Shown one piece after another: positions 1,875-35,061 of a stretch of DNA of 64,000 bases (its first letter is position 1; every line of letters begins with the position of its first letter). The notes under the pieces were generated by a model. The model worked only from the letters and a program-made list of their open reading frames with translations, did not search any database and was not told the origin of the DNA. The DNA comes from Burkholderiaceae bacterium. GTDB lineage: Bacteria; Pseudomonadota; Gammaproteobacteria; Burkholderiales; Burkholderiaceae_E. The DNA is taken from positions 10,308 to 74,307 of the forward strand of contig JAWKYD010000024.1 of NCBI GenBank assembly GCA_041396685.1, read 5' to 3'. A program made the translations under genes and the position numbers.

Positions 1875-4508
1875 TCAGAGACGCTCGCGAACCCAGTCGT
1901 CCACGGACGACAGCGCCCCCGCGAGCGCGGCGACGTCAGTACCGCCACCCTGCGCCATGTCCGGACGGCCACCACCGCGACCACCGATCTGGCCGGCAAC
2001 GTGGCCGACGAGATCGCCGGCCTTGACCCCGGCAACGGTCTTGGTGGTGACGCCGGCGACCAGGCTGATCTTGTCGTCCTGTACTCCGGCCAGCAGAACG
2101 ACCGCGCTACCGAGCTTGTCACGCAACTGGTCGACCGTTTCGCGCAGCGTCCTGGCATCGGCGCCGTCGAGACGCGCGGCCAGCACGCTGACCTCGCCGA
2201 TCTTGATCGCGCGCGCAGCCAGATCGCCGCCCTGGGCGCTGGCCATTTGAGACTTCAGCCGTGCCAACTCGCGCTCGAGCTGACGCGACTGGTCGAGCAG
2301 GCTTTCGACCCGGGCGGGCAGTTCGGACGGCGGCACGCGCAAGACCGCGGCCGTGCGATCGAGCAAGGCCTGCCGTTCGTTGACCACCGCCAGCGCGCCC
2401 TCGCCGGTCACCGCCTCGATGCGACGGATGCCGGCGGCGACACCGCCCTCCGAGACGATCTTGAACAGACCGATGTCGCCGGTGCGCGAGACGTGGGTGC
2501 CACCGCACAGCTCACACGAAGAGCCGATGTTCAACACTCGGACCTGGTCACCGTATTTCTCGCCGAACAAGGCCATCGCGCCTGCCGCGATCGCATCGTC
2601 GTAGCCCATCAGGCGCGCCTGAGTGGCGAGATTGGCGAGGATCTCGCGATTGACGATGGCCTCGACCTTCGCGATCTGCCCGGCGTCGACCGGCGCATTG
2701 TGGCTGAAGTCGAAGCGGGTGCGCTCGGCATCGACCAGCGAACCCTTCTGCTGCACGTGGGGCCCGAGCACTTCGCGCAAGGCCTTGTGCATCAGGTGCG
2801 TGGCCGAGTGGTTGCGCACGATGCGTTCCCGACGCGCGACGTCGACGCGCGCATCGAGCGTGTCGCCCTCGGCCAGCCCACCCTCCTGCAACACGCCGTG
2901 ATGACCGAACACCGCGGCCTGGATCTTCTGTGTGTCCTCGACACGAAACAGCGAACCACCGGCCACCAGGACACCGGAATCACCCACCTGACCACCGGAT
3001 TCCGCATAGAACGGCGTATGGTCGAGCACCACCACACCGGCCTCGCCCGCGACCAGCCGCGGAACGCGAATGCCGTCACGGTAGAGGGCCGTGACCAGGC
3101 CCGCGTGCGTCATCGCGTCGTAGCCATGGAAGGTCGTACCCGCTCCGTCGTATTCGAGCGCCTGCCCCATGCGGAACTTGGCCGCGGCGCGTGCCTGCTC
3201 GCGTTGCCGGGCCATGGCCGCATCGAAGCCGGCTTCGTCGACCGCGAGACCGTTCTCGCGGCAGACGTCGGCGGTCAGATCGAGCGGAAAGCCATAGGTG
3301 TCGTGCAGCTTGAACGCCGTGGCACCGTCGAGCACCGCGCCTGCCTGACCGCGCAGCGGCGCCAGCGCGGCGTCGAGAATCTCCATGCCGTGAGCGATGG
3401 TCTCGAAAAAGCGCGTCTCTTCCTGGCGCAGCACGTCGGTGATGCGCGCCTCCTGGTGGCGCAGTTCCGGATAGGCATCGCCCATCTGCCCGGCCAGCGC
3501 GGCCACCAGCGTGTGAAAGAACGGCGCGCGGGCGCCGAGCTTGTAGCCATGGCGGATCGCGCGCCGCGTGATGCGGCGCAGGACGTAGCCGCGACCTTCG
3601 TTGCCCGGGATCACGCCGTCGGCGATCGTGAACGAACAGGCGCGGATGTGGTCCGCCAGCACCTTCAGCGACGGGCTGCCGGGATCCGCCTGCCCACCGG
3701 CCGACTCGACCGCCCGCCGGGCGGCGCCCAGCAAGGCCACGAACAGGTCGATCTCGTAGTTCGAGTGCACGCCTTGCAGGACCGCCGCGATGCGCTCCAG
3801 GCCCATGCCGGTATCGACACTGGGCTTGGGCAGCGGATGCATGGTGCCCGCCTCGTCGCGGTTGAACTGCATGAACACGAGATTCCAGATCTCGATGTAG
3901 CGGTCGCCGTCCTCGTCGGGGCTGCCGGGCGGGCCGCCGGCGATGTCCGGGCCGTGATCGAAGAAGATCTCGCTGCACGGACCGCAGGGGCCGGTGTCGC
4001 CCATCATCCAGAAATTGTCCGAGGCGTAACGCGCGCCCTTGTTGTCGCCGATGCGCACGATGCGCGCGGCCGGCACGCCGATCTCGCGCGACCAGATGTC
4101 GTAGGCTTCGTCGTCCTCGGCGTAGACGGTGATCCAGAGCTTGTCCGCGGGCAGGCCGAAACCCTGCGTCAGCAGTTCCCAGGCAAAATGGATCGCATCG
4201 CGCTTGAAGTAGTCGCCGAAGCTGAAATTGCCCAGCATCTCGAAGAACGTGTGGTGCCGGGCCGTGTAGCCGACGTTCTCGAGATCGTTGTGCTTGCCGC
4301 CGGCGCGGATGCATTTCTGCGAGGTGACCGCACGGCTGTAGGGCCGTTTGTCGAATCCGAGGAACACGTCCTTGAACTGGTTCATGCCCGCATTCGTGAA
4401 CAGCAGCGTCGGGTCGTCGCCGGGCACGACCGGGCTCGAGGCCACGATCGTGTGCCCCTTGGACTCGAAATAGTTCAGGAAGGTATTGCGGATGTCGGCA
4501 GATTTCAT
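1875..4508 (-). CDS. alaS: Alanine--tRNA ligase
   Basis: [22 protein letters not shown]...[11 protein letters not shown] is the canonical AlaRS N-terminus. The editing-domain HxxxH/CxxxH region and the C-terminal DHHA1-like tail are present. About 877 aa from the ATG at 4508. Confidence 0.97.
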
Positions 4509-6746: not shown

Positions 6747-8384
6747 ATGACCCACATTCCGTCACCGGGGTGGCACGCGCCCTTTGGCTGGCAAGCCCCC
6801 TACCTGACGCCGCGCACGCCGGTGTTCGGTCGCAACGTGGTCGCCACCTCCCAGCCGCTGGCGGCACAGGCAGGTCTGCATATCCTGCGCAGCGGCGGCA
6901 ATGCGGTGGATGCCGCCGTCGCCGCGGCCGCCGCGATCACGCTGACCGAGCCGGTCTCCAACGGGCTGGGCAGCGACTGCTTCGCGATCCTCTGGGACGG
7001 CCAGGCACTGCACGGCCTGAACAGCTCCGGCGTGGCGCCAGCCGCCTGGACACCCGGGTATTTCGCCTCCCGGCACGGCGAACGCATCCCGCTGCGCGGC
7101 GTGGATACCATCACGATTCCGGGCGCGATCGCCGGCTGGCATGCGCTGCACGAGCGCTTCGGGCGCTGCAGCTTCGCCGATTGCCTGGCACCGGCGATCG
7201 AGCTCGCCGAACGCGGCTTCGCGGTCGCGCCGATGGTGCGGCAGAAGTGGGCCGCACAGGTTGGCGAGTTGTCGAAGCAACCCGGCTTCGCCGAGGTCTT
7301 CATGCCGCACGGGCGGGCGCCGGAGATCGGCGAGCGCGTGCGCATGCCCGGCGCGGCCGTCACCCTGCGCGGCCTGGCCGAGCGCGGTGCCCGTGACTTC
7401 TACGAGGGTGAGATCGCCGAGCGACTGGTGGCCTGGCTGCGTGCGAACGGCGCGGCCCATACGGTGGCCGACTTCGCCGCCTACCGGCCCGACTGGGTCG
7501 GCACGATCTCGCGCCGCTACCGCGGCTACGAGGTCCACGAAATCCCGCCCAACGGCCAGGGCATTGCGGCCCTGATGGCGCTGGGCATGCTCGAGCACTT
7601 CGATCTCGCCGCGCTGGCGCCGGACGCCGTGGCCTGCCAACACCTGCAGATCGAAGCGATGAAGGCGGCATTCGCCGACGTCTACCGCTACGTCGCCGAT
7701 CCGCGCGCCATGACCGACGTCACGGCCGCCGATCTGCTCGATGACGCCTATCTGGCCTCGCGCGCGCGTCTGATCGATCCCGCCCGTGCGACCGATTTCG
7801 GCCCGGGGCGCCCACCCGCCGGCGGCACCATCTACATGTCCGCCGCCGACGACAGTGGCATGATGATCAGCTTCATCCAGAGCAACTACATGGGTTTCGG
7901 CTCCGGCGTGGTCATGCCCGAGCTCGGCATCTCGCTGCAAAACCGCGGCCAGGGTTTCAGCCTCGACCCCGCCTCGGTCAATCTCGTCGCCCCGGGCAAG
8001 CGCCCCTTCCACACGATCATCCCCGGCTTCCTGATGCGCGACGGCCAGCCCCAGATGAGTTTCGGTGTGATGGGCGGCAACATGCAGCCCCAGGGCCACG
8101 TCCAGACCCTGGTGCGCATGATCGATCACGGCCAGAATCCGCAGGCCGCCTGCGACGCACCGCGCTGGAAGGTCAATCGGGGCCTGTCGGTCGACCTCGA
8201 AGACGCGGTCGCCGGGCCGCTCAAGCAGGCGCTGGTGGGTATGGGCCATCAGATCGAGCCGATCGTCGACAGTTACATGGACTTCGGCTCGGGTCAGTTC
8301 ATCTGGCGCCTGTCCGACGACCGGGACGATGGCTACGTGGCCGCCAGCGACTCGCGCCGTGACGGCCACGCGGCCGTGTTCTGA
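6747..8384 (+). CDS. ggt: Gamma-glutamyltransferase family protein (no obvious signal peptide)
   Basis: The NVVATSQPLAAQAGLHILRSGGNAVDAAVA N-terminal block and a GGT(I)Y nucleophile region are typical of the GGT / Ntn-hydrolase family. GGAG precedes the ATG at 6747, 1 nt after the HAD stop. Confidence 0.88.
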   Translation: MTHIPSPGWHAPFGWQAPYLTPRTPVFGRNVVATSQPLAAQAGLHILRSGGNAVDAAVAAAAAITLTEPVSNGLGSDCFAILWDGQALHGLNSSGVAPAAWTPGYFASRHGERIPLRGVDTITIPGAIAGWHALHERFGRCSFADCLAPAIELAERGFAVAPMVRQKWAAQVGELSKQPGFAEVFMPHGRAPEIGERVRMPGAAVTLRGLAERGARDFYEGEIAERLVAWLRANGAAHTVADFAAYRPDWVGTISRRYRGYEVHEIPPNGQGIAALMALGMLEHFDLAALAPDAVACQHLQIEAMKAAFADVYRYVADPRAMTDVTAADLLDDAYLASRARLIDPARATDFGPGRPPAGGTIYMSAADDSGMMISFIQSNYMGFGSGVVMPELGISLQNRGQGFSLDPASVNLVAPGKRPFHTIIPGFLMRDGQPQMSFGVMGGNMQPQGHVQTLVRMIDHGQNPQAACDAPRWKVNRGLSVDLEDAVAGPLKQALVGMGHQIEPIVDSYMDFGSGQFIWRLSDDRDDGYVAASDSRRDGHAAVF

Positions 8385-9472: not shown

Positions 9473-10354
9473 ATGCGGCGGGCCCTCAGGATCCTGCTCG
9501 GTACCTTCGTTTTCATCGTCGCGGCCACACTGATCGGAAGCCAGATGGGACTACTCTCGGGAACTCGCCCCTCCGAACTGGGCGTCGTCGATGGTCGCTT
9601 GCGCTCCGTCGACGACAAACCGGAGAACTCGGTGTCCAGCCAGACCGAACGCCCGGCCAACCGGATCGAACCCCTGGCGACAGGGCCCGTCCCTGACGCC
9701 GCCTTCGAGACCTTGCTCGAGCTGGTTGCCGACACCCCGGGCGCCACGATCGTCACCCGCCGACCCGGCTACGCGCACGCCGAGTTCGAAACCCGCCTGC
9801 TGAAGTTCGTCGACGATGCCGAGTTCCTGCTCGATGCCGACGCGCACGTCATCCACGTGCGCTCTGCCTCGCGGCTCGGGCGCAAGGACTTCGGCGTCAA
9901 CCGCAAACGCATCGAGGATCTGCGCGGCCGGCTGACCGCCGCGCTTGCCGGTGCAGGCGGGAAATCCGATTCAACATCCGTCCACGGAGCAGACCCCATG
10001 AATTATCAAACGCAGCCCAGCGGCCTGCAGATCGCCGAACTGGAAGCCGGCAGCGGCGAGACGGCGCAGGCCGGCCGGCAGGTGGCCGTGCACTACACAG
10101 GCTGGCTCTACGAGAACCAGCAGGCCGGGGCGGAGTTCGATTCGAGCCTGCGTCGCGGCGAGCCGATCATGTTCCCGCTCGGTGCCGGCCACGTGATCGC
10201 CGGTTGGGACGAAGGCATCGCGGGCATGAAGGTCGGCGGCAAGCGGCGACTGCTGATTCCACCCCAACTCGGCTATGGCGCGCGCGGCGCCGGTGGCGTG
10301 ATCCCGCCCAACGCGACCCTGCTGTTCGAAGTGCAATTGATGGAAGTGCGGTGA
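9473..10354 (+). CDS. DUF1499-like domain fused in frame to an FKBP-type peptidyl-prolyl cis-trans isomerase
   Basis: The N-terminal half has a TM/signal segment plus FVDDAEF...VRSASRLGRKDFGVNRKRIE (DUF1499-like). The C-terminal 118 aa read VAVHYTGWL...FDSS...GHVIAGWDEG...PPNATLLFEVQL (FKBP). No stop lies between the halves. An internal ATG at 9998 has GGAG upstream. Confidence 0.75.
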   Translation: MRRALRILLGTFVFIVAATLIGSQMGLLSGTRPSELGVVDGRLRSVDDKPENSVSSQTERPANRIEPLATGPVPDAAFETLLELVADTPGATIVTRRPGYAHAEFETRLLKFVDDAEFLLDADAHVIHVRSASRLGRKDFGVNRKRIEDLRGRLTAALAGAGGKSDSTSVHGADPMNYQTQPSGLQIAELEAGSGETAQAGRQVAVHYTGWLYENQQAGAEFDSSLRRGEPIMFPLGAGHVIAGWDEGIAGMKVGGKRRLLIPPQLGYGARGAGGVIPPNATLLFEVQLMEVR

Positions 10355-12144
10355 ACAAGCGAGCGCCAGCGCCGGCGCCTGCCGGGGGCGACGAATACGC
10401 GGCAGGCAATTTCATTCGGACGCAGATCGACCAGGATCTGGCAGCCGGCCACTTCACGCAACGACGCTGGCCCGGGCAGCCCGGCGCGGCCGCCGACAAG
10501 CTAGCCGCCGAGCCTGATCCGGCGCCGATCCGCACCCGCTTCCCGCCCGAACCCAACGGCTTCCTGCACATCGGCCACGCGAAATCGATCTGCCTGAACT
10601 TCGGCCTCGCCGAAGACTACGGCGGACGTTGCCACCTGCGCTTCGACGACACCAATCCCGAGAAAGAGGACCAGGTCTTCGTCGATGCCATCTACGATGC
10701 CGTGCGCTGGCTCGGCTACCGCTGGGACGCGGGCGCTGAGAACAACGGCTATTTCGCCAGCGACTATTTCCCGACCCTGTACGCATTCGCCGAGGCACTC
10801 GTCGAGGCCGGCCATGCCTACGTCGATTCGCAATCGGCCGACGAGATGCGTGCCCGTCGCGGCACGCTGACCGAGCCGGGCACCGAGTCCCCGTATCGAA
10901 GCCGCCCGCCCGCCGAGAGCCTCGCGCTGCTGCGCGAGATGCGCGACGGCAAACACCCCGACGGCAGCCACATCCTGCGCGCGCGCATCGACATGGCCGC
11001 GCCGAACATGAACATGCGCGACCCGGCGCTCTACCGGATCCGCCGCGCCGTTCATCACCGCACGGGCGATCGCTGGTGTGTCTACCCGATGTACGACTAT
11101 GCGCACCCGATCGAAGACGCGCTCGAGAACATCACCCATTCGCTCTGCACGCTCGAATTCCAGGATCATCGTCCGCTCTATGACTGGCTGCTCGAGCGCC
11201 TGGCCGAACTGAATCTGCTGAACCGGCCGCTGCCGCGGCAGATCGAGTTCGCCCGCCTCAATCTCGAGTACACGGTCATGAGCAAACGGCGTCTGGCGAC
11301 GCTGGTCGCCGACGGCCACGTGCAGGGCTGGGACGACCCCCGCCTGCCGACCATCGCCGGCCTGCGCCGGCGCGGCTACACGCCCGGCGCGATCCGGCTT
11401 TTCTGCGACCGCATCGGCGTGACCAGGTCGGACACCTGGATCGAACATTCCGCGCTGGAACAGGCGCTGCGCGACGATCTCGATGCCAGCGCGCCACGCG
11501 CGGTGGCGGTCCTGGCACCGCTCAGGCTCGAGCTGAGCAACTGGCCGGCCGACTCCGTGGAGGCTTGCGAGGCGCCGGTTCATCCGCGCGACCCTGCGCG
11601 CGGCACGCGTCGCTTCAACCTGACCCGCGAACTCTGGATCGAGGCCGACGACTTCACCGAGACACCGCCGAAGGGCTATTTCCGCCTGTTTCCAGGCAAC
11701 CGCGTCCGCTTGCGCTACGGCTTCGTCATCGAGTGCACGGGCTGCGAGAAAGATGCCGAGGGCCGGGTCGTCAAGGTGCTCGCCAACGTGCTACCCGACT
11801 CCAAATCCGGCACGCCGGGAGCCGACAACTACAAGGTCAAGGGCAACATTCACTGGGTGTCGGCGACCGAGGGCCGCGCCGCGCAGGTGCGTCTCTACGA
11901 GCGCCTGTTCCTGCAACCGAACCCGGGCGCCGGTGATCGCGACTGGCTCAGCGATCTCAATCCCGACTCCCTGCAGAGCATTCAGGCCTTCGTCGAGCCG
12001 GGCATCCCAGCCGACGCGAGCCAGCCGATGCAGTTCGAACGCCACGGCTACTTCGTGTTCGACGACACCGATGGCAGTGCCGATCAGCTGGTCTTCAACC
12101 GGGCGGTCACGCTGAAGGATTCGTTCAAGGCGGGTGGCCGCTAG
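10351..12144 (+). CDS. glnS: Glutamine--tRNA ligase
   Basis: NFIRTQIDQDL, class I HIGH motif (RFPPEPNGFLHIGHAKS) and MSK motif (VMSKRRL). The GTG start at 10351 overlaps the upstream stop (GTGA). Confidence 0.93.
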   Translation: MNKRAPAPAPAGGDEYAAGNFIRTQIDQDLAAGHFTQRRWPGQPGAAADKLAAEPDPAPIRTRFPPEPNGFLHIGHAKSICLNFGLAEDYGGRCHLRFDDTNPEKEDQVFVDAIYDAVRWLGYRWDAGAENNGYFASDYFPTLYAFAEALVEAGHAYVDSQSADEMRARRGTLTEPGTESPYRSRPPAESLALLREMRDGKHPDGSHILRARIDMAAPNMNMRDPALYRIRRAVHHRTGDRWCVYPMYDYAHPIEDALENITHSLCTLEFQDHRPLYDWLLERLAELNLLNRPLPRQIEFARLNLEYTVMSKRRLATLVADGHVQGWDDPRLPTIAGLRRRGYTPGAIRLFCDRIGVTRSDTWIEHSALEQALRDDLDASAPRAVAVLAPLRLELSNWPADSVEACEAPVHPRDPARGTRRFNLTRELWIEADDFTETPPKGYFRLFPGNRVRLRYGFVIECTGCEKDAEGRVVKVLANVLPDSKSGTPGADNYKVKGNIHWVSATEGRAAQVRLYERLFLQPNPGAGDRDWLSDLNPDSLQSIQAFVEPGIPADASQPMQFERHGYFVFDDTDGSADQLVFNRAVTLKDSFKAGGR

Positions 12145-28445: not shown

Positions 28446-29144
28446 TCAGTCGGAGTTGGCGAAGCCGAGCAGTTGCAGCAGACTGAGGAACAGGTTGAAG
28501 ATCGTCACGAACAGCGTGATCGTGGCCATCACGTAGTTGGTTTCGCCACCGTTGACGATCGCCTGGGTCTGGAAGATGATCAGGCCGGCCATCAGCAACA
28601 TGAACATCGCCGACACCGCCAGCGACAAGGCCGGCATGCTGAAGAAAATCGCCACCAGTCCGAGCACGAACGCGGTCAGGATGCCGGCGGTCAGATAACC
28701 ACCCATGCCGCTGAAATCACGCTTGGTCGTCAACGCATAGGCGCTCAGCCCGCCGAAGATCACCGCGGTGCCGCCCAGGGCGGTGGCCACGATCTGGCCG
28801 CCGCCAGGCAGGCCCAGGTAGGCATTGATGATCGGCCCCAGCGTGTAGCCGAGAAAACCCGTGAACGCGAACGTCAACAGGACGCCGGCACTCGACTCAC
28901 GAAACTTCGAGACCAGAAACAGCAGGCCGAAGTAGCCGACCAGGGTCAGGATGATGCCCGGGTGCGGCAGACCCATCATCGCCGAACCACCCGCCACCAG
29001 CGCCGCGAAGGCCAGATTGAGCGAGAGCAACGCATAGGTGTTGCGCAAGACCTTGTTGCGACTGATCTCGCCGCCGATGCCGATGCCATCCGCGCGATAG
29101 CGACCGGCGGATGCCACATCGATGGTTTGTCTGTTGCGATCCAT
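28446..29144 (-). CDS. Bax inhibitor-1 / YccA family membrane protein
   Basis: VLRNTYALLSLNLAFAAL... followed by seven TM segments, ending ...FLSLLQLLGFANSD. AAGGAG precedes the ATG at 29144. Product is 232 aa. Confidence 0.9.
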   Translation of the reverse strand: MDRNRQTIDVASAGRYRADGIGIGGEISRNKVLRNTYALLSLNLAFAALVAGGSAMMGLPHPGIILTLVGYFGLLFLVSKFRESSAGVLLTFAFTGFLGYTLGPIINAYLGLPGGGQIVATALGGTAVIFGGLSAYALTTKRDFSGMGGYLTAGILTAFVLGLVAIFFSMPALSLAVSAMFMLLMAGLIIFQTQAIVNGGETNYVMATITLFVTIFNLFLSLLQLLGFANSD

Positions 29145-29262
29145 GTCCGACTCCTTGTTTGACGTTGATCGTACGCCGCCACTATAACCCCGCGGTGAAT
29201 AACATAAACCGTATAATTTCTTATTATTCATACGTTTTATTCGTATTGAATTCGGGCGATCG

Positions 29263-30240
29263 ATGAGTAAATCATTGAATTTCAACCACTTGTTCTACTT
29301 CTGGGTTGTTGCCAAGGAAGGCAGCATCGCCAAGGCGTCCGAGCGCCTGGGCATCGCCAGCCAGACCATCAGCGGGCAGATCAAGCTGCTGGAGAAATCG
29401 CTCGGGAGTTCGTTGTTCGCGCCCAAGGGCCGCGGACTGACCCTGACCGAACCAGGCCGCGTGGCACTAGGCTATGCCGATCAGATCTTCCTGCTTGGCG
29501 AGCAACTGGTGGAGGCTGTGGCCGATCCAGCGCTCGGCGGCGTGATGCGGCTTCACGTCGGCACCACCGATGCTCTGCCGAAATGGGTCTCCTACGAACT
29601 GATCCACCCCGTATTCGCCGCGCGCACGGCGGTGCGCTTGCAATGCCACGAGGGCGAGTTCGACGAATTGCTGGCCGAGCTTGCGTTGCACAAACTCGAC
29701 GTCGTGCTCGCCGACAGGCCCGTCGGCGACAGCAGCGGCCTGCGCGTATTCAGCCACCCGATCGGCGACAGCGAGATGGCGTTCTTCGGGTCGACCGCGC
29801 TGGCTGACCGGCATCGGGCCGGATTTCCTGCCAGCCTGAACGACGCACCGATCCTGCTGCCATCGCGACACACGGCGGTACGAGCGCGGCTGGACGGCTG
29901 GCTGCAGCATCACGACCTGCGCCCGCACGTGATCGGTGAGTTCGAGGACAGCGCACTGCTGGCGACCTTCGGCGCGACCGGCCTGGGGCTGTTTCCGGCG
30001 GTCGCGGTCAGCGAGGCCGACCTGAATCAACAATACGGTGTCGAGATCGTCGGTTCGATCGACGGTGTCCGCGAGCAGGTGTTCGCGATCACCAACGAGC
30101 GACGCATCAAGCACCCGCTGATCGAGACCTTGCTCAGCCGCGGCCGCCGCCTGTGGCAGCGGAACGATGATGAGGCCGGCTCAGCCGCGGAAGCGCTCGC
30201 GGATCATGCCGGCATAGCCGATCAGACCCGGCGAGGATAG
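29263..30240 (+). CDS. LysR-family transcriptional regulator, NhaR-like
   Basis: LNFNHLFYFWVVAKEGSIAKASERLGIASQTISGQIKLLE closely resembles the NhaR-subfamily HTH. It is divergent from the BI-1 gene. Its 3' end overlaps the convergent DUF1992 gene by 60 bp. Confidence 0.85.
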   Translation: MSKSLNFNHLFYFWVVAKEGSIAKASERLGIASQTISGQIKLLEKSLGSSLFAPKGRGLTLTEPGRVALGYADQIFLLGEQLVEAVADPALGGVMRLHVGTTDALPKWVSYELIHPVFAARTAVRLQCHEGEFDELLAELALHKLDVVLADRPVGDSSGLRVFSHPIGDSEMAFFGSTALADRHRAGFPASLNDAPILLPSRHTAVRARLDGWLQHHDLRPHVIGEFEDSALLATFGATGLGLFPAVAVSEADLNQQYGVEIVGSIDGVREQVFAITNERRIKHPLIETLLSRGRRLWQRNDDEAGSAAEALADHAGIADQTRRG

Positions 30241-30558
30241 CTCGACGCCACGCGCTTCGAGCGCGATGGTCAGGGCCAGCAGGCGGCGCCGAGCCTTGCG
30301 CTCGGCGGCGGTGTCACCCTCTTCCAGAGCCCGCAAGGCGGTGGCGCGCAGCTCGGCTATCTGGCGACGCTGGGTGACCTCGGGCGGAACCATGCCGGCA
30401 TTGCGCAGCACTCGATACGCGACCCGGAGTTCTTCGGGGATCAGCCGGTCGTCGTCGAGCGCCAGCGGCCGGCCCTGACCAGGAAGATCATCGAACTGGC
30501 CTTCGGCCTGGGCCTTTGCGATACGCCGCTCGATGAGATCGTCGAATGAGCCGAACAT
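30181..30558 (-). CDS. DUF1992 (DnaJC28-like) domain protein
   Basis: IERRIAKAQAEGQFDDLPGQGRPL...PEELRVAYRVLRNAG is the DUF1992 signature. 125 aa from the ATG at 30558. Confidence 0.8.
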   Translation of the reverse strand: MFGSFDDLIERRIAKAQAEGQFDDLPGQGRPLALDDDRLIPEELRVAYRVLRNAGMVPPEVTQRRQIAELRATALRALEEGDTAAERKARRRLLALTIALEARGVELSSPGLIGYAGMIRERFRG

Positions 30559-30650
30559 GGGCAACCGGAAGAACGCGCGAGAGATGATTATCCCAGGCTC
30601 CGAGCGCCCGCGCGACCCGTGCCGGCGCGCGTGTCGGCCGGCCCTGCGTA

Positions 30651-33371
30651 TCACTGTGTGGTAACGGCAGCCATCGAACCGGCCACCCGTCGGTGGCCGA
30701 TCAAGACCCCGCCGACCAGTCCGATGACGGCCGCGCTCGCGTGCAGCGCGACCGAGGCAACGGCGCCGGCCTGTGGCCACTGAACCTGCAGCAGCGCATC
30801 GAGCAGCAGCTTGATCACCAAACCCACGGCAAGCACGGGGCCGAAGCCACGACCGCGGATGCGATCGTCGACCCAGTAGATGCCGATTGCCCACGCCGCC
30901 AGTGCGTGCAATGCGGTCGACAGACCCGCGACCCATGTGTGCAAGCCCAGCCCGACTGCGAGGAAATGAGCGGCAGGTGCGGCCACCAACAGAGCCGCGG
31001 CCCACGCCCTGGCATCGATCGCCCGCGCGAACACGATCTGCAGCATCGCCAGACCGAGCAGATTCGAGACCAGATGCGCGGCGTCGATGTGCGAGAACGA
31101 GGCCAGCCAGGCGAAGATGGGCAGGGAACGAGCGTCGAAGGCCAACGTCGGCGCCTGGATGCCGATTGCCATCGCGGCGATCGCGAGTACGCCGACCGTG
31201 GTCGCGAGTTCCGTGGACGAGCGCAGTGCCCGCTCGTGTGCGACCGTGCGCGGCGCGCTCGGCAACATCACTCCCAGCCCGCCACGGTTCGGAATGAGCA
31301 AGGCGCCGGCCAGCAGCAACAGGATGGCGCCGTGCCAGCCTACCAGCCCACCGCCCCCGCCCATCGGATTCTGGGTGGCGTCCGCCGTGGTGCTCGCCGT
31401 GTCTTGCCGGTCGACCATGACCTGCACGCTGATCGGCACACCCGAGCCGACGCTGTCGTAGGGTGTGACCTCGACTTGATGATCGCCTTCGGGCGGCTGG
31501 TTCCAGACCACCTCGACGCCTTCGATCTTGACGCCCTGGGCGACAGACGAGGAATCGACCGCGATCGCTTGGGGCGTCCCGCCGTCGGCCAGCTTCATCG
31601 CCTTGCGCACCGATGAGCCGATCTCGACGTGGATCGGATCGACGGGCGCCAGCACCGGCGCGATGGTCACCGTGACATTCGTGTCGACGCTGCGCGAGGC
31701 CAACGTGTTGTCCGTGGCGGTCAGCCGGAAGGACAGGATGCCGTTCACATCGGGTGCGATGAAACGCGCGGTGCGGCCATCGTTTTCCAGCGTCAGCGAG
31801 ACGCTCGGCCCGGTCAACTGCTGCCAGACGAAGGTCGGCGAGATCGCGCTGCTGCTGGCATCGCCTTCGAGCACGACTGCGTCGCCGGCGCGAACGTTGG
31901 CGGTCTGTGCGGACGCGGACACCGTGAATGGCGGCGGCACGAGAGCGGCCTCGACATCGAGCATGCCGGCGCCACACAGACCTCCGTCACAGGTGCCGGC
32001 CGCAATCGGCCGTGCGCTGGCGGTCAGCAGACCCTGGATCGTCGATGGCGAACGCGTTCCGTCCTGCGCCAACAGCAGCGCCACGGCGCCGGCGACATGC
32101 GGGGCCGCATAGCTGGTACCAGACCCCATCCGGTAGCCGGTCGACGTTCCGTCGTGATGGGCGATCGCCACGAAGTTGTATGGATCGGTATTGCAGTTGG
32201 CGGGCGCGCCCACCGGGCAGCCACCACCGGCCGCGGCCAGGGTCGTGCCGGTGCCGGCATTCGAATAGTCGGCGCGCTTGCCGTCCTTGGTGGTCGCCGC
32301 GACCGCGATCACACCATTGCAAGCTGCCGGTACCGTGATGGCGTCCTGCCCGTTGTTGCCGGTGCTGACCACGATCGTCGCGCCGGTCGCGAGCACCTGG
32401 TCGATGACGCCCTGGGTGACCGTATCGCAGGTCGCACCCGGGCTGGTGGTGCCGAGGCTGAGGTTCAGGATCTTGACCGGGTTCGGGTTGGTGGGCACGC
32501 CGCTGACCGGCAGGCCCACGGCCCAGCGCATCGCGTCGAGAACGTCACTGAGTACGCCGCCGCAGCCGCTGATCACGCGCACCGGCATGATGCTGGCCTC
32601 TGGCGCAACACCGACCAGTCCTTCGTTGTTGTTCAAACGGGCGGCAATGATGCTCGCCACGTGCAGCCCGTGCGGAGTCCCGACCTGTGGCGTGCCGTCC
32701 TTGATGCAATTCATCGTGTCGGTGGGATCGGCATCGCGCCCGTCGCCGTCGCCGGACAGATCGGTATTGCCGAGGAAATCGTAGCCACCGGTCCACACGC
32801 CCTGCATGTCCGGATGATCGACCTTGCCGGTGTCCAGTACGGCCACCGTGATGCCGTTGCCACGATGGTTCGGCCAGACCGGCTCGCTCTGGGTGGTTCC
32901 CGTGCTGCCGGCAGCCAGATTCCAGAGTGTGTAGGCCAGGGAGTCATTGCTCGAGACGACTCCCTGCGGTTTGACCACACGGTCGACAAGCACGCCTTCG
33001 ATCTCGGCGGGGCTCATCTGCTGGGCGGCCCATGCCTGCGCCTGCGCCTCGGTCATCGGGAATGGCAGTGCAAGTCGCAGCGGCGTGCTGTAACGCGTGA
33101 TCGCGCTGGGCGCGGGATCGGCGGGCACGGGATTGTCGTCGCTGTCTTCGGCATGGGGTCGCGGCACGCCGAAGCTCGGCTTGACGTCCTGTACCGTCAG
33201 CGCACGACGATATATGACGATCTGCTCGATCAACTCCGGCTCGGCTACAACCGCCTCCGTCGGTGCCGACAAGATCTGCGGCGTGGCGGCAGCGAGCGCG
33301 GCGACACCGAGCAAACCAGCGGCGCTGAAACCCTTGATGAGCCCGACGGCCCACTCCTTCCTTTGACCCAT
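30651..33371 (-). CDS. Secreted S8 (subtilisin-like) serine protease with Ig-like domains and a GlyGly-CTERM-like signal, fused in frame to a rhombosortase-like rhomboid protease
   Basis: Signal peptide is present. S8 triad in context: D180 (AVLDTGK), H234 (TPHGLHVAS), S420 (SGTSYAAPHVAG). Two Ig/PKD-like modules cover residues 480-655. GGGGGLVGWHGAILLLLAGALLIPNRG covers residues 671-697. Residues 702-906 form six predicted TMs carrying rhomboid motifs: H-x3-N (AHLVSN), GLS(T) and ALHASAAVIG. The ORF is 906 uninterrupted codons. Confidence 0.8.
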   Translation of the reverse strand: MGQRKEWAVGLIKGFSAAGLLGVAALAAATPQILSAPTEAVVAEPELIEQIVIYRRALTVQDVKPSFGVPRPHAEDSDDNPVPADPAPSAITRYSTPLRLALPFPMTEAQAQAWAAQQMSPAEIEGVLVDRVVKPQGVVSSNDSLAYTLWNLAAGSTGTTQSEPVWPNHRGNGITVAVLDTGKVDHPDMQGVWTGGYDFLGNTDLSGDGDGRDADPTDTMNCIKDGTPQVGTPHGLHVASIIAARLNNNEGLVGVAPEASIMPVRVISGCGGVLSDVLDAMRWAVGLPVSGVPTNPNPVKILNLSLGTTSPGATCDTVTQGVIDQVLATGATIVVSTGNNGQDAITVPAACNGVIAVAATTKDGKRADYSNAGTGTTLAAAGGGCPVGAPANCNTDPYNFVAIAHHDGTSTGYRMGSGTSYAAPHVAGAVALLLAQDGTRSPSTIQGLLTASARPIAAGTCDGGLCGAGMLDVEAALVPPPFTVSASAQTANVRAGDAVVLEGDASSSAISPTFVWQQLTGPSVSLTLENDGRTARFIAPDVNGILSFRLTATDNTLASRSVDTNVTVTIAPVLAPVDPIHVEIGSSVRKAMKLADGGTPQAIAVDSSSVAQGVKIEGVEVVWNQPPEGDHQVEVTPYDSVGSGVPISVQVMVDRQDTASTTADATQNPMGGGGGLVGWHGAILLLLAGALLIPNRGGLGVMLPSAPRTVAHERALRSSTELATTVGVLAIAAMAIGIQAPTLAFDARSLPIFAWLASFSHIDAAHLVSNLLGLAMLQIVFARAIDARAWAAALLVAAPAAHFLAVGLGLHTWVAGLSTALHALAAWAIGIYWVDDRIRGRGFGPVLAVGLVIKLLLDALLQVQWPQAGAVASVALHASAAVIGLVGGVLIGHRRVAGSMAAVTTQ
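30654..31268 (-). other. Rhombosortase-like rhomboid intramembrane serine protease domain
   Basis: FDARSLPIFAWLASFSHIDAAHLVSNLLGL parallels the rhombosortase GEWWRL..H..H....HL..N block. WVAGLSTALHAL holds the GxS catalytic Ser, and VALHASAAVIGLVGG holds the catalytic His. An in-frame ATG at 31268 has only a closely spaced GGAG. Confidence 0.6.
31281..31361 (-). other. GlyGly-CTERM-like tripartite sorting signal (internal to the 906-aa ORF)
   Basis: A Gly run (GGGGG), then a hydrophobic helix (LVGWHGAILLLLAGALLI), then a weakly basic segment (PNRG, with a single Arg). Normally this motif forms the extreme C-terminus of a protein. Confidence 0.6.
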
Positions 33372-33573
33372 GGCGAATTCCGTCCGTTTCCCGTGAGCGC
33401 GCGCCAGTTCGCGATAACGAATCGCGGCTCAGACGAAGACATTCTTCAGCGCACCGACGGCGCGTGGAACGGCCTACCGGGTTTGGCGGACGGAAAGCAG
33501 AAGGTGACCGACGAACGGTCGCGACGCTGTTGCGGCCAGGCCGGCCGAAGGCAGCGCCCGGGGACGCGAGCGC

Positions 33574-35061
33574 TCAGCGGCTCAGGGTGCGAGCCACGGC
33601 ATCCCGCCAGGCGTCGAGTGCGGCTCGTCGCGCGGGCGCGGACAGTGCGGGCTCGAAACGCCGGTCCAGACGCCAGCCGGCCGCGAAGCCCTGTTCCTGC
33701 GGCCACACGCCCGCCTGCATACCGGCCAGCCAGGCCGCGCCCAGGGCGGTGGTTTCGAGCACCTGAGGGCGATCGACCGGCGCGGCCAGCAGATCGGCAA
33801 GCCGCTGCATGGTCCAGTCCGAGGCGACCATCCCCCCGTCGACGCGCAAGACCGTATCGGCACTGCCGGACCAGTCGCCCTTCATCGCGTCGAACAGATC
33901 GCAGGATTGGAAACATACCGATTCGAGAGCCGCCCGCGCGAGCTCGCGCGGGCCGGTCGCGCGGGTGATGCCGAACAGAGCCCCGCGCGCGTCGGCGTCC
34001 CAGTATGGCGCCCCCATGCCCGTGAACGCCGGCACCAGGATCACGCCTTGATGCGGATCGGAAGCCGCCGCGAGATCGCCCGAGCGGGCGGCATCGTCGA
34101 GCACGCCGAGGCCATCGCGAAGCCACTGTACCGCCGCGCCCGCCACGAAGATCGAACCCTCGAGCGCGAAGCTGGTCCGCCCGCGCAGACGGTAGCCGAT
34201 GGTGCTCAGCAGACGGTTCTTCGAGCGCACGAGCTCACTACCGGTATTGAGAACTGCGAAACAGCCGGTGCCATAGGTGGACTTGACCATGCCGGGCTCG
34301 AAACAGGCCTGCCCGACCAACGCTGCCTGCTGGTCGCCGGCGATGCCGCGGATGGCGATCGGCGCGCCGAACAGCGACGCCTCGCAGACGCCGAACTCGG
34401 CCGCACAGTCGTGAACCTCGGGAAGCATGGCCCGTGGGACGTCGAGGGCGCGCAACAGGTCGTCGTCCCAGTCATTGCGCGTGATGTCGAACAGGAGCGT
34501 ACGGGAGGCGTTGGTGGCGTCGGTGGCGTGCACCTTGCCACCGGTCAGTCGCCAAAGCAGAAAGCTGTCGACGGTACCGAATGCCAGCTCGCCCGCCTCG
34601 GCGCGCGCCCGCGCACCGGGCACGTTGGCGAGGATCCAGGCAAGCTTGGAGCCGGAGAAATACGGATCGAGCAGCAGGCCCGTACGCTCGGTGAACATCG
34701 GCTCGAGGCCGTCGTTCTTCAGCGCCGCGCAGTGCTCGCTCGTGCGCCGATCCTGCCAGACGATGGCACGATGGATGGCGCGTCCGGTCTTGCGATCCCA
34801 GACGAGCGTGGTCTCGCGCTGGTTGGTGATGCCGATCGCGGCGACCGCTTCCGCCGCAACGCCAGCACGCTCGAGCGCCTCGCGCACCGTCTCGACCGTC
34901 GTCTGCCAGAGATCCTCGGCCTCGTGCTCGACCCAGCCCGACTGCGGAAAGTGCTGGGTGAATTCCCGCTGACCGACGGCGACGGCCCGAAAGCCGCCAT
35001 CGAAGACGATCGCACGCGAACTGGTCGTTCCCTGGTCGATCGCAACCACATATCCGCTCAT
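33574..35061 (-). CDS. glpK: Glycerol kinase
   Basis: [18 protein letters not shown]...GWVEH...[13 protein letters not shown]...IVWQDRRT...DPYFSG.K..W is the canonical FGGY GlpK pattern. Confidence 0.96.

Follow-up and report, generated by a model that had tools for sequence, protein, structure and literature searches.

One reading frame spans a subtilase, a sorting helix and a rhomboid-type domain

The pairing of rhombosortase with GlyGly-CTERM targets comes, to our knowledge, from phylogenetic profiling and has been confirmed in one organism only. An ORF in the window, by which we mean the whole 64-kb stretch of DNA that was analysed, raises the question of whether such a protease can be made joined to its own target. 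With enzyme and target in one polypeptide, the 'C-terminal' sorting signal becomes internal, and we asked whether this architecture is genuine and what the protein would do with its sorting helix.

30651..33371, minus strand: whole ORF, pre-pro-subtilase, sorting helix and rhombosortase-like domain (ORF list, GC3, MEZ5653790.1)

The ORF starts with ATG, encodes 906 amino acids and is real. As the original prediction said, it places a subtilase, a GlyGly-type helix and a rhomboid-type protease in one uninterrupted frame, and GC3 (0.75-0.93) stays in that frame, unbroken, across the fusion junction and the whole ORF. Hydropathy and AF2 give 1+6 membrane helices plus a signal peptide, in keeping with the coherent topology that had been proposed, and 209 codons were counted after residue 697, close to the predicted ~205. 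The identical protein in NCBI (MEZ5653790.1) is labelled only 'S8 family serine peptidase'.

33285..33371, minus strand: signal peptide, residues 1-29, with a K/R n-region, a hydrophobic core and an AAA-TP junction (hydropathy, AF2, P31)
32967..33239, minus strand: propeptide-like region, ~residues 45-135, beta-alpha-beta, I9-like (AF2 and conserved residues)
32010..32861, minus strand: Peptidase_S8 catalytic domain, residues 171-454 (PF00082, 160.3 bits)
32832-32834, minus strand: S8 D180 (codon checked)
32670-32672, minus strand: S8 H234 (codon checked)
32355-32357, minus strand: S8 oxyanion Asn, N339 (codon checked)
32112-32114, minus strand: S8 S420 (codon checked)
31665..31922, minus strand: PKD-like beta-sandwich module 1, residues 484-569 (PF22352 and AF2)
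31416..31655, minus strand: Ig-like beta module 2, residues 573-652 (AF2; Pfam matches of relatives)
31362..31415, minus strand: disordered Thr/Ala/Asp-rich stalk, residues 653-670 (AF2 and low identity)

Residues 1-670 are a Sec-exported pre-pro-subtilase with two Ig-like modules. The signal peptide has a hydropathy peak at residues 8-34 and an AF2 helix at residues 2-27; it is probably cleaved between AAA and TP, and P31, which follows the A-x-A site, is almost invariant in aligned relatives. Because no Pfam match was found for the region that follows, we infer its propeptide-like character from AF2 elements (strands 48-56, 94-106 and 124-129, helix 108-118) and from conserved residues (Y54, A111/A113/A115 and D130). 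The Peptidase_S8 profile (PF00082) matched at 160.3 bits against a gathering score of 21.8 (E = 8e-47), and the intact triad that had been predicted is present as D180, H234 and S420; these residues and N339 are invariant or nearly so across 16 relatives. The two proposed Ig-like modules appear in the AF2 model as all-beta modules at residues 484-569 and 588-652 (pLDDT ~80-92). The first (pLDDT 86-92) carries a K319L-like PKD match (PF22352, residues 492-568, E = 6.7e-7), and the strands of the second have a pLDDT of ~78-88, its region carrying PF05345/PF17963 matches in relatives. Residues 654-678 fall below a pLDDT of 50, and mean pairwise identity in the stalk is 0.21 among fused proteins.

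Profile alignments relate the membrane domain to rhombosortase

30651..31211, minus strand: six-helix rhombosortase-like intramembrane serine protease domain, residues 721-906 (TIGR03902, hhalign, AF2, Foldseek)
31089-31091, minus strand: H761, aligned with canonical rhombosortases
31074-31076, minus strand: H766, first residue of H-x3-N in AHLVSN
31062-31064, minus strand: N770, last residue of H-x3-N in AHLVSN
30918-30920, minus strand: Ser818, in GLS818T
30798-30812, minus strand: K854/D858, the rhombosortase K...E/D motif
30741-30743, minus strand: His877, in LH877A

The motifs of the predicted six-TM rhomboid-type protease (AHLVSN, GLS818T and LH877A) were all found, and the AF2 model of the domain (pLDDT 81.9, pTM 0.81) has a six-helix rhomboid fold, in which the hhalign-derived positions place Ser on TM4 and His on TM6. 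Foldseek top matches were all GlpG or iRhom (probability up to 0.98, target-normalised TM up to 0.67, E = 0.25 or worse). Pfam Rhomboid (PF01694) gave no match at E up to 1 with either the whole protein or the C-terminal 239 aa, and a PDB sequence-profile search found nothing. The sole NCBIfam match to the membrane domain was the rhombosortase model TIGR03902, over profile positions 22-151 of 154. Here the original prediction held in part: the match is significant, but its scores of 36.7 bits for the whole protein (E = 3.9e-9) and 40.2 bits for the domain alone (E = 3.2e-10) lie below the curated equivalog cutoff of 84 bits. Fused and stand-alone relatives scored 42-47 bits (down to E = 2.8e-12), so that, unlike canonical pairs, this protease clade falls at 37-47 bits; it also has GLST in place of the canonical GLSG, with Thr replacing the Gly after the catalytic Ser.

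The proposed kinship with rhombosortases was borne out by hhalign against 10 canonical members, each passing TIGR03902 at 91-136 bits (probability 99.5%, E = 2.2e-23), which aligned H761/H766/N770, S818, K854..D858 and H877 with their counterparts. Among 1.84 billion representative proteins, the next-nearest to the clade were bona fide rhombosortases scoring 91-136 bits. As judged from these alignments, the membrane domain is a divergent offshoot or sister clade of rhombosortase and no formal member of TIGR03902 or TIGR03501. It forms the C-terminal 186 residues of a 906-aa protein and is no small stand-alone protein of about 180-250 aa; the best 120 canonical rhombosortases are all stand-alone, at 176-246 aa. 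Given GLST and the sub-cutoff TIGR03902 score, activity or specificity could therefore differ from that of rhombosortase.

Sub-cutoff family scores, the failure to match Pfam Rhomboid and the iRhom structures among the fold matches would also fit a pseudoprotease or chaperone-like module (cf. iRhom, Derlin) that leaves the subtilase helix uncut and escorts it in export or quality control. We consider this very improbable: Ser818 and His877, the catalytic pair that pseudoproteases lack, are invariant in all fused proteins, as are H766 and N770 of the oxyanion-hole H-x3-N, and the nearest relatives are active-type rhombosortases.

The internal helix aligns with the C-terminal tails of unfused relatives

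31293..31361, minus strand: GlyGly-CTERM-derived sorting helix (TM0), residues 671-693, the proposed cleavage region (alignment to unfused tails)

The Gly motif, hydrophobic helix and lone Arg of the original prediction are present exactly as quoted and are homologous to unfused GlyGly-type tails: GGGGG at residues 671-675 is followed by LVGWHGAILLLLAGALLI and then PNRG, in which R696 is the single basic residue after TM0. The Gly motif consists of the run at 671-675 and G678-x-H680-G681-A682. TM0 aligns column-for-column with the true C-terminal tails of unfused orthologues, and G675, G678, H680, G681, A682 and L684 are invariant in 16 sequences, fused and split (G..G.HGA.L). The G..G.HGA motif, with its His inside the helix, sets this tail apart from canonical GlyGly-CTERM pairs. 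Mean pairwise identity among fused proteins is 0.57 in TM0, 0.23 in TM1, 0.21 in the linker and 0.66 in the S8 core; AF2 confidence for TM0 is only ~64-72. TM0 is still under constraint in the fused proteins, its conservation matching that of the catalytic domains. Against the GlyGly-CTERM model (TIGR03501, cutoff 15.5 bits), the prediction failed for the window helix, which gave no match, the profile search returning just MprA_tail at 10 bits (E ~1). Other fused tails scored 10.8-11.6 bits, also below the cutoff, and a split orthologue tail 15.1 bits (E = 0.029). By curated cutoffs alone, both family labels, rhombosortase and GlyGly-CTERM, would fail. Of the three parts of such a signal, the Gly run and the helix persist and are conserved; the basic cluster is down to R696 in the window group and is kept as RRR or RRAAR in P0004, P0006, P0007, P0013, P0014 and P0016. 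TM0 is not C-terminal in the window protein, having 209 residues with six further helices downstream; the tails of split orthologues are terminal, on a protein that has a signal peptide and lacks any further membrane helix. Residues 671-693 descend from the subtilase's GlyGly-CTERM-type sorting helix.

The lost basic cluster and failed TIGR03501 match in the window lineage, the GLST motif and the seeming waste of making enzyme 1:1 with substrate raise the alternative that TM0 is no longer cut. The rhomboid-type domain would then anchor the subtilase permanently, through seven helices, at the inner membrane's periplasmic face, and its proteolytic activity would act on other substrates or go unused. 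We think this unlikely: no fused protein departs from the four catalytic-site residues, the Gly motif of TM0 is retained, TM0 is far more conserved than the plain membrane helix TM1 (0.57 versus 0.23), and the split orthologues show a classical target with an adjacent protease.

The fusion recurs across lineages and has two-gene counterparts

33574..35061, minus strand: glycerol kinase gene, upstream neighbour, a synteny marker for fused/split orthology (ORF list)
30181..30558, minus strand: DJC28_CD small gene, downstream neighbour (PF09350, E = 1e-23)

A homologue search found 10 distinct fused proteins, 903-985 aa long, and a further one that is N-truncated. Fused relatives are 42-69% identical to the window protein over 85-97% of its length and come from Burkholderiaceae, in different MAGs, SPAdes contigs, a 3.39-Mb contig and independent Logan assemblies; one cluster, P0007, has six members (845-985 aa, one partial) from different assemblies. 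Their common locus order is glpK - S8 - DJC28 - LysR - Bax1-I. DJC28_CD follows the S8/rhombosortase unit in every related locus, and FGGY_N/C genes occupy the position of the glycerol kinase in L001, L003 and L005.

Comparison of orthologous loci, as the original prediction had suggested, revealed a split sister group in which the same locus encodes two genes, a 706-709-aa S8 protein and a 205-215-aa rhombosortase-like protein. The split S8 genes of L001, L002, L003, L011 and L012 end in GGGGGALGLHGALLLMLAWIARRRLYAG directly before the stop codon, and in all five the two genes lie in different frames with a conserved 11-nt overlap. The window's neighbour genes recur in L001-L003; for L011 and L012, the shared features are the S8 tail and the overlap. 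The split subtilase stops 7 residues past the helix, with the tail RRRLYAG. Its S8 part is 50-51% identical to that of the window, and the stand-alone 205-215-aa orthologues (P0008-P0012 and P0121-P0129, for example MGH1360425.1) are 35-41% identical to the window C-terminal domain, the small gene being annotated only 'hypothetical protein'. At E = 1e-10 or better, the fused/stand-alone clade amounts to five 50%-identity clusters among the 1.84 billion representative proteins (three fused, one stand-alone, one fragment). The clade is small and known only from uncultured Burkholderiaceae.

In Ralstonia and Cupriavidus, single-target rhombosortase and GlyGly-CTERM genes lie side by side (Haft & Varghese 2011, PMC3237569). 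The split orthologues have exactly this layout, and the window locus likewise has one rhomboid-type protease and one secreted target with a Gly motif, a helix and a basic tail that is down to R696 here; unlike the dedicated pairs, it joins both in one polypeptide. Because the corresponding parts are two overlapping genes in relatives, we read the window protein as a natural enzyme-substrate fusion. Residues 721-906 trace back to the small rhombosortase-like gene that, in sister genomes, overlaps the gene for the subtilase. We found no published description of such a target-sortase fusion, in agreement with the original prediction, and the words 'fusion' and 'fused' are absent from Haft & Varghese 2011 (PMC3237569). 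An intramembrane protease made covalently joined to its own TM substrate is, as far as we found, undescribed.

The split genes differ in frame and overlap by 11 nt, so one indel could be enough to join them, and only one MAG is known to encode the exact window protein. A one-base error or recent mutation might thus have merged two overlapping genes, the real organism having an ordinary target/sortase pair or a pseudogene. We rejected assembly error and recent stop-codon loss, the latter raised by the original prediction, and give them almost no weight: the ten distinct fused sequences span several deep lineages and independent Illumina/SPAdes, long-contig and Logan assemblies, with six members from different assemblies in the P0007 cluster alone. 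The coding signal is unbroken across the junction, catalytic residues are intact on both sides of it, and the longer linker of the window group is conserved as protein. The fusion is old, and we are highly confident that it is a real, conserved joining of target and sortase.

A conserved methionine in the linker

31212..31292, minus strand: cytoplasmic linker, residues 694-720, variable between fused lineages
31266-31268, minus strand: conserved in-frame Met702, in the linker
31271-31274, minus strand: GGAG ahead of Met702, an SD-like element

The linker differs in length and sequence between fused lineages, and that of the window group is ~25 aa longer than the others. An in-frame linker Met is conserved in all four window-group members, and the three whose DNA was read have a G-rich SD-like element upstream of it (GGAG-N2-ATG in the window, GGGG-N2-ATG in L004 and GGAG-N6-ATG in L010). 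By eye, 'MPGAAAC...' in P0014 resembles the N-terminus of a stand-alone enzyme. Ribosomes might therefore also start at a relic Met702 and make a free rhombosortase-like enzyme that acts in trans on the full-length protein, the fusion being a tolerated read-through of a former stop codon and no cis device. This is improbable in our view: the linkers of the fused proteins P0006, P0007, P0013 and P0016 are without Met, the SD spacing is poor in the window and L004, and G-rich strings are frequent in a 67% GC genome. A full-length fused product would still be made and would still need explaining.

A model for self-processing of the fused protein

The window protein unites a dedicated rhombosortase-type system in one naturally occurring polypeptide that evolution has kept; we propose that it acts as a substrate-sortase polyprotein and cleaves the sorting helix it carries. 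We put the probability of this whole explanation at about 0.6, lower than for the fusion itself because it includes the self-cleavage step. The signal peptide would carry the subtilase to the periplasm, and TM0 would halt transfer with its N-terminus out and C-terminus in, the orientation of rhomboid substrates. The six-helix domain would insert behind it, N-in, giving the 1+6 topology. Ser818 would then cleave TM0 at its periplasmic end, within the Gly run or immediately behind it. The cut might occur in cis, by way of the TM2/TM5 gate, or in trans, between adjacent molecules, and would release the subtilase from the membrane domain. Self-cleavage in one or other of these ways is the most likely fate of the sorting helix. 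Fusion would set enzyme and substrate at 1:1 and ensure their encounter, which an overlapping, presumably translationally coupled, gene pair would merely approximate.

The nearest experimental parallel is RssP, which cuts VesB inside the GlyGly-CTERM helix at the second Gly; the VesB helix docks on TM2/TM5 of RssP, and VesB gains a glycerophosphoethanolamine adduct and is exported in a T2SS-dependent manner (PMC6219818, PMC11389362). Both the window substrate and VesB are zymogens of secreted serine proteases in which an Ig-like module is accompanied by a disordered linker and a helix rich in Gly. The window enzyme resembles RssP as a small six-helix rhomboid without a cytoplasmic domain, and the expected cut is likewise within the helix at the Gly motif. 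Unlike the window fusion, RssP is a separate protein with six substrates, and VesB is trypsin-like (S1), not a subtilase. By analogy with VesB/RssP of V. cholerae, the new C-terminal Gly might acquire a phosphoethanolamine lipid, and a type II secretion system might take over the enzyme and display it at the cell surface. Both the lipid attachment and the need for a T2SS were shown for VesB/RssP and are assumed here; within the 64-kb window, we found no T2SS, no other GlyGly-type target and no second rhombosortase.

More tentatively, the protein could be the first case in nature of a rhomboid-type protease with a cis-substrate, with single turnover on itself, the fused form being ancestral in the clade and followed by one later fission; this is possible, though we favour it less than self-cleavage in general. 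If so, each molecule would be made tethered by a 12-27-residue cytoplasmic loop to its one TM target. It would then be a single-chain complex of enzyme and substrate, ready for structural studies of intramembrane proteolysis and of the lipid-transfer (transamidation) step of rhombosortase. More generally, a conserved natural fusion provides independent 'Rosetta-stone' evidence for the rhombosortase/GlyGly-CTERM pairing and extends the rhombosortase system to a divergent clade that current models miss. An S818A version of the fused protein might trap a rhomboid bound to its substrate, and the protein offers a handle on whether rhomboids cut in cis and on the fate of the new C-terminal Gly.

Mitochondrial rhomboids of the PARL '1+6' type have an additional helix at the N-terminus, where they are cleaved in a self-regulated manner. 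Unlike TM0, the extra helix of PARL is no sorting signal of a cargo protein and carries no large exported enzyme, and the two proteins have no sequence relationship beyond the rhomboid core. What they share is a 1+6 topology of seven helices, in which the added helix precedes that core, and the idea of a rhomboid that cuts its own chain.

A subtilase and a rhombosortase-like protease share one open reading frame

The 906-codon open reading frame (ORF) uses one frame from end to end, junction included, as judged by GC content at third codon positions (0.75-0.93). Its parts are as follows.

30651..33371, minus strand: fused ORF, 906 codons, uninterrupted
Residues 171-454: Peptidase_S8 (Pfam, 160 bits)
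Residues 492-568: K319L-like PKD module (Pfam)
Residues 484-569 and 588-652: two all-beta modules (whole-protein AlphaFold2 model)
Residues 654-678: disordered stalk (same model)
Residues 679-692: helix, followed by a helical bundle (same model)

The original prediction described a subtilase with an intact triad, two Ig-like modules, a Gly-rich helix and a six-helix rhomboid-type domain within this ORF, and each part was recovered. The S8 profile matched, and D180, H234, N339 and S420 fall on the codons predicted for them and are kept in every full-length relative. The Ig-like modules correspond to the two all-beta modules, with the PKD match in Pfam. The whole-protein model had a mean pLDDT of 67.6; residues 658-906 modelled alone gave a pLDDT of 81.9 and a pTM of 0.81 and, together with hydropathy, the predicted topology of one helix plus six. 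We also confirmed the Gly run (671-675), the hydrophobic helix, the lone arginine behind it (R696) and the protease motifs AH766LVSN770, GLS818T and LH877A. Scanning 30100-33700 for promoters and terminators returned none.

The fusion recurs in independent assemblies

We searched 5.8 billion proteins for relatives. An identical protein is present in one NCBI metagenome-assembled genome (MAG) of Burkholderiaceae (MEZ5653790.1, annotated 'S8 family serine peptidase'), and the search gave nine more fused proteins. P0002-P0007, P0013 and P0014 are 903-985 aa long and share 42-69% identity with the window protein over 85-97% of its length; P0016 is a further fused protein, truncated at its N-terminus. 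These sequences come from different projects and assemblers. They sit, among others, on a 419-kb contig at NCBI, on SPAdes NODE contigs and on a contig of 3.39 Mb that also has an independent Logan copy; one fused cluster has six members (845-985 aa) from separate MAGs. A sequencing error or a recent loss of a stop codon, which had been put forward as the alternative, is thus effectively excluded, as is a pseudogene. This is a real, conserved fusion, limited to a small, uncultured clade of Burkholderiaceae.

Annotated directly by Pfam, the neighbours in the window prove to be housekeeping genes, with a glycerol ABC transporter and glpK on the upstream side and DJC28_CD, LysR, Bax1-I/YccA and CcmF on the downstream side. 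The order S8 - DJC28_CD - LysR - Bax1-I is common to the window and the fused loci L004-L006; upstream, a glpK call is present in the window and in L005, and downstream, related loci have PNPOx. Every related locus, fused or split, has the small DnaJ-C28-like gene directly after the subtilase/rhombosortase unit.

30181-30558, minus strand: DJC28_CD small gene

Within the 64-kb window we found no secretion genes, no second rhombosortase by HMM scan and, in a crude scan for C-terminal tails of the Gly-motif/helix/basic type, no match other than the fused ORF. At L004, from the MAG of the closest fused relative, Bax1-I was called in two pieces (10279-10976; 82 and 125 aa) and a 1.8-kb gap without a called glpK lies upstream of the subtilase; that assembly could have frameshifts or pseudogenes at this point.

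Sister lineages encode the two parts as overlapping genes

Aligning orthologous loci revealed that in a sister group (P0008-P0012) the two parts are separate, overlapping genes. The sister subtilases (706-709 aa) stop seven residues past the hydrophobic helix, ending ...GGGGGALGLHGALLLMLAWIARRRLYAG, and this tail of Gly motif, helix and basic cluster has the build of a GlyGly-CTERM signal. The gene that follows at all five split loci (L001, L002, L003, L011 and L012) codes for a membrane protein of 205-215 aa that is 35-41% identical to the window C-terminal domain and has all its motifs. Since the split loci hold homologues of both parts, the window ORF amounts to the overlapping pair read as a single gene. 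The small gene begins in the +1 frame, 11 nt ahead of the subtilase stop codon, in each of the split orthologues (TAT GCA GGC TAA / ATG CAG GCT AA).

L001 8114-8124: 11-nt overlap; likewise in L002, L003, L011 and L012

No Shine-Dalgarno sequence is obvious, and the arrangement suggests that target and protease may be translationally coupled even as separate genes. Programmed frameshifting in the split loci was set aside because the overlap lacks a conserved slippery sequence.

In a neighbour-joining tree built on the subtilase part, the split forms make up one clade amid several fused lineages, with the fused P0014 branching deep; linkers are unlike one another across the fused lineages. Both an old fusion with one later fission and a history of several fusions would fit these data. 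As the rooting is uncertain, we claim no direction and leave the number of events undecided.

A more distant subtilase relative, P0015 (L007 2254-4257; 667 aa), has the tail GGAGSIGGHGALLLLLAFLMRRRT... and lies in a locus that differs from that of the window and is without an adjoining rhombosortase-like gene. We therefore dropped it as evidence on the fusion; its processing enzyme, if any, would be encoded elsewhere.

The membrane domain is a divergent relative of rhombosortases

The sole NCBIfam match of the C-terminal domain was the rhombosortase model TIGR03902, with an E-value of 3.9e-9 but a score (36.7 bits) far short of the cutoff (84); scores were 42-47 bits for stand-alone orthologues and for other fused proteins. 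Neither Pfam Rhomboid nor a sequence-profile search of the PDB gave a match to the domain, so we relied on the TIGR03902 E-values, profile-profile alignment and fold to show homology. Alignment by hhalign with ten canonical rhombosortases gave a probability of 99.5% (E 2.2e-23) and paired H761/H766/N770, Ser818, K854...D858 (K...E in the canonical enzymes) and His877. In Foldseek, the best matches to the AlphaFold2 model were GlpG and iRhom chains, with probabilities up to 0.98 and target-normalised TM-scores up to 0.67 at weak E-values (0.25 or worse).

A word-indexed search with the protease-domain alignment recovered only nine stand-alone proteins and, through a limitation of the index, missed the fused ones; searching 1.84 billion representative proteins exhaustively by HMMER, with the domain profile as query, recovered both. 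Only 33 proteins had E-values of 1e-3 or better, and five of them (three fused, one stand-alone and one fragment) reached 1e-10 or better. Among the weaker matches sampled, six pass TIGR03902 (91-136 bits) and one more scored 78 bits, and two longer ones scored 54-56 bits and also match GlpG models. From the profiles and the predicted fold, we conclude that the domain is an offshoot that has diverged from the rhombosortases and kept its catalytic apparatus intact, and that it does not belong formally to the curated equivalog. The rhombosortase-like assignment thus stood as homology; it did not extend to the TIGR03902 cutoff or to Pfam Rhomboid. With the serine, the histidine and H-x3-N intact, it is unlikely that the domain is a pseudoprotease.

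Across the clade, in fused and stand-alone proteins, the catalytic serine lies in GLST (Ser818-Thr819, window 30915-30920), as opposed to the GLSG of canonical rhombosortases and GlpG, and the substrate helix has an invariant histidine (H680, in G-x-H-G-A). Both features could determine specificity and have adapted to each other. The clade (stand-alone P0121-P0130, 205-215 aa, and all fused relatives) also falls into an annotation gap, unseen by Pfam Rhomboid and under the TIGR03902 cutoff: in public records a fused protein is no more than an 'S8 family serine peptidase', and a stand-alone enzyme is a 'hypothetical protein'.

The sorting helix is conserved within the fused proteins

The window helix can be aligned, column by column, to the genuine C-terminal tails that the split orthologues carry; across all 16 sequences G675, G678, H680, G681, A682 and L684 do not vary. 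We ran the GlyGly-CTERM model on isolated tails.

TIGR03501 scores of isolated tails (cutoff 15.5 bits)
Split orthologue: 15.1 bits
Fused P0007 and P0014: 10.8-11.6 bits
P0004: no match
Window protein: no match

All tails being under the cutoff, we do not claim formal GlyGly-CTERM membership; what survives of that assignment is the alignment with genuine C-terminal tails. The basic patch is as weak as had been noted (one Arg), the basic cluster having been lost in the window group, that is, the window protein and its closest fused relatives with a longer linker. Among the nine full-length fused proteins, mean pairwise identity was 0.57 for the Gly motif and helix, compared with 0.66 for the S8 core, 0.23 for protease TM1 and 0.21 each for linker and stalk. 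Such retention, beyond that expected of a mere membrane span, argues on sequence grounds that the sorting helix is still recognised. It is possible that the subtilase stays uncleaved and permanently membrane-anchored, but this leaves the joint conservation of catalytic residues and sorting motif unexplained.

In Vibrio cholerae, the rhombosortase RssP cuts VesB within the helix at the second glycine, with the helix docked on TM2/TM5; a glycerophosphoethanolamine adduct was found, and a type II secretion system is needed (PMC6219818, PMC11389362). By analogy, the most likely mechanism for the fused protein would be self-processing, which is an appealing prospect. The sequence indicates that the signal peptide exports the pro-subtilase with both Ig-like modules, that the sorting helix halts transfer, running N-out to C-in, and that the six-helix domain follows N-in, giving the 1+6 topology. 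We infer that Ser818 and His877 would then cut the sorting helix at its periplasmic end, in or beside the Gly run, either in cis or with one molecule cutting its neighbour. The freed subtilase may be lipid-linked through its new C-terminal glycine and passed to a type II secretion system. Between sorting helix and TM1, the cytoplasmic loop measures about 12-14 residues for P0006 and P0013 and 27 for the window protein. Going by the dimensions of GlpG, a loop of such length should be enough to reach the TM2/TM5 gate.

Separate translation of the protease domain, from an internal start, is for some lineages a real possibility. The window group has an in-frame methionine in the linker, preceded by a G-rich Shine-Dalgarno-like element in all three members whose DNA was read, and P0014 retains the apparent N-terminus of the stand-alone enzyme; against this, the linker methionine is absent from other fused lineages.

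Window 31266-31274: linker ATG (Met702, 31266-31268) and SD-like element (GGAG)
L004, about 8105-8116: linker ATG and SD-like element
L010, about 3625-3638: linker ATG and SD-like element, with the best spacing (GGAG-N6-ATG)

The linker ATG is probably a relic start of a formerly separate protease gene, and it may still be used.

The fused protein is a new architecture within a known system

The founding paper on rhombosortases described target and protease genes as adjacent in single-target genomes and does not mention a fusion of the two (PMC3237569). Neither the Haft sorting-signal preprint nor a 2025 rhomboid review mentions one, and the statement in the original prediction that no such fusion had been described held in these three sources. 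Papers containing both 'GlyGly-CTERM' and 'fused', judged by title and abstract, appear to be experimental studies whose fusions, if any, are engineered constructs. The 120 best-scoring canonical rhombosortases among 5.8 billion proteins are all 176-246 aa long. We class the fused protein as a new architecture within the known rhombosortase/GlyGly-CTERM system.

A minor observation concerns the Bax1-I/YccA homologue (window 28446-29285, minus strand), whose mechanical ORF begins at a TTG, 76 residues ahead of the Pfam domain. Since its homologues are 227-230 aa long, the true start is probably an internal methionine (MDRNRQ...).
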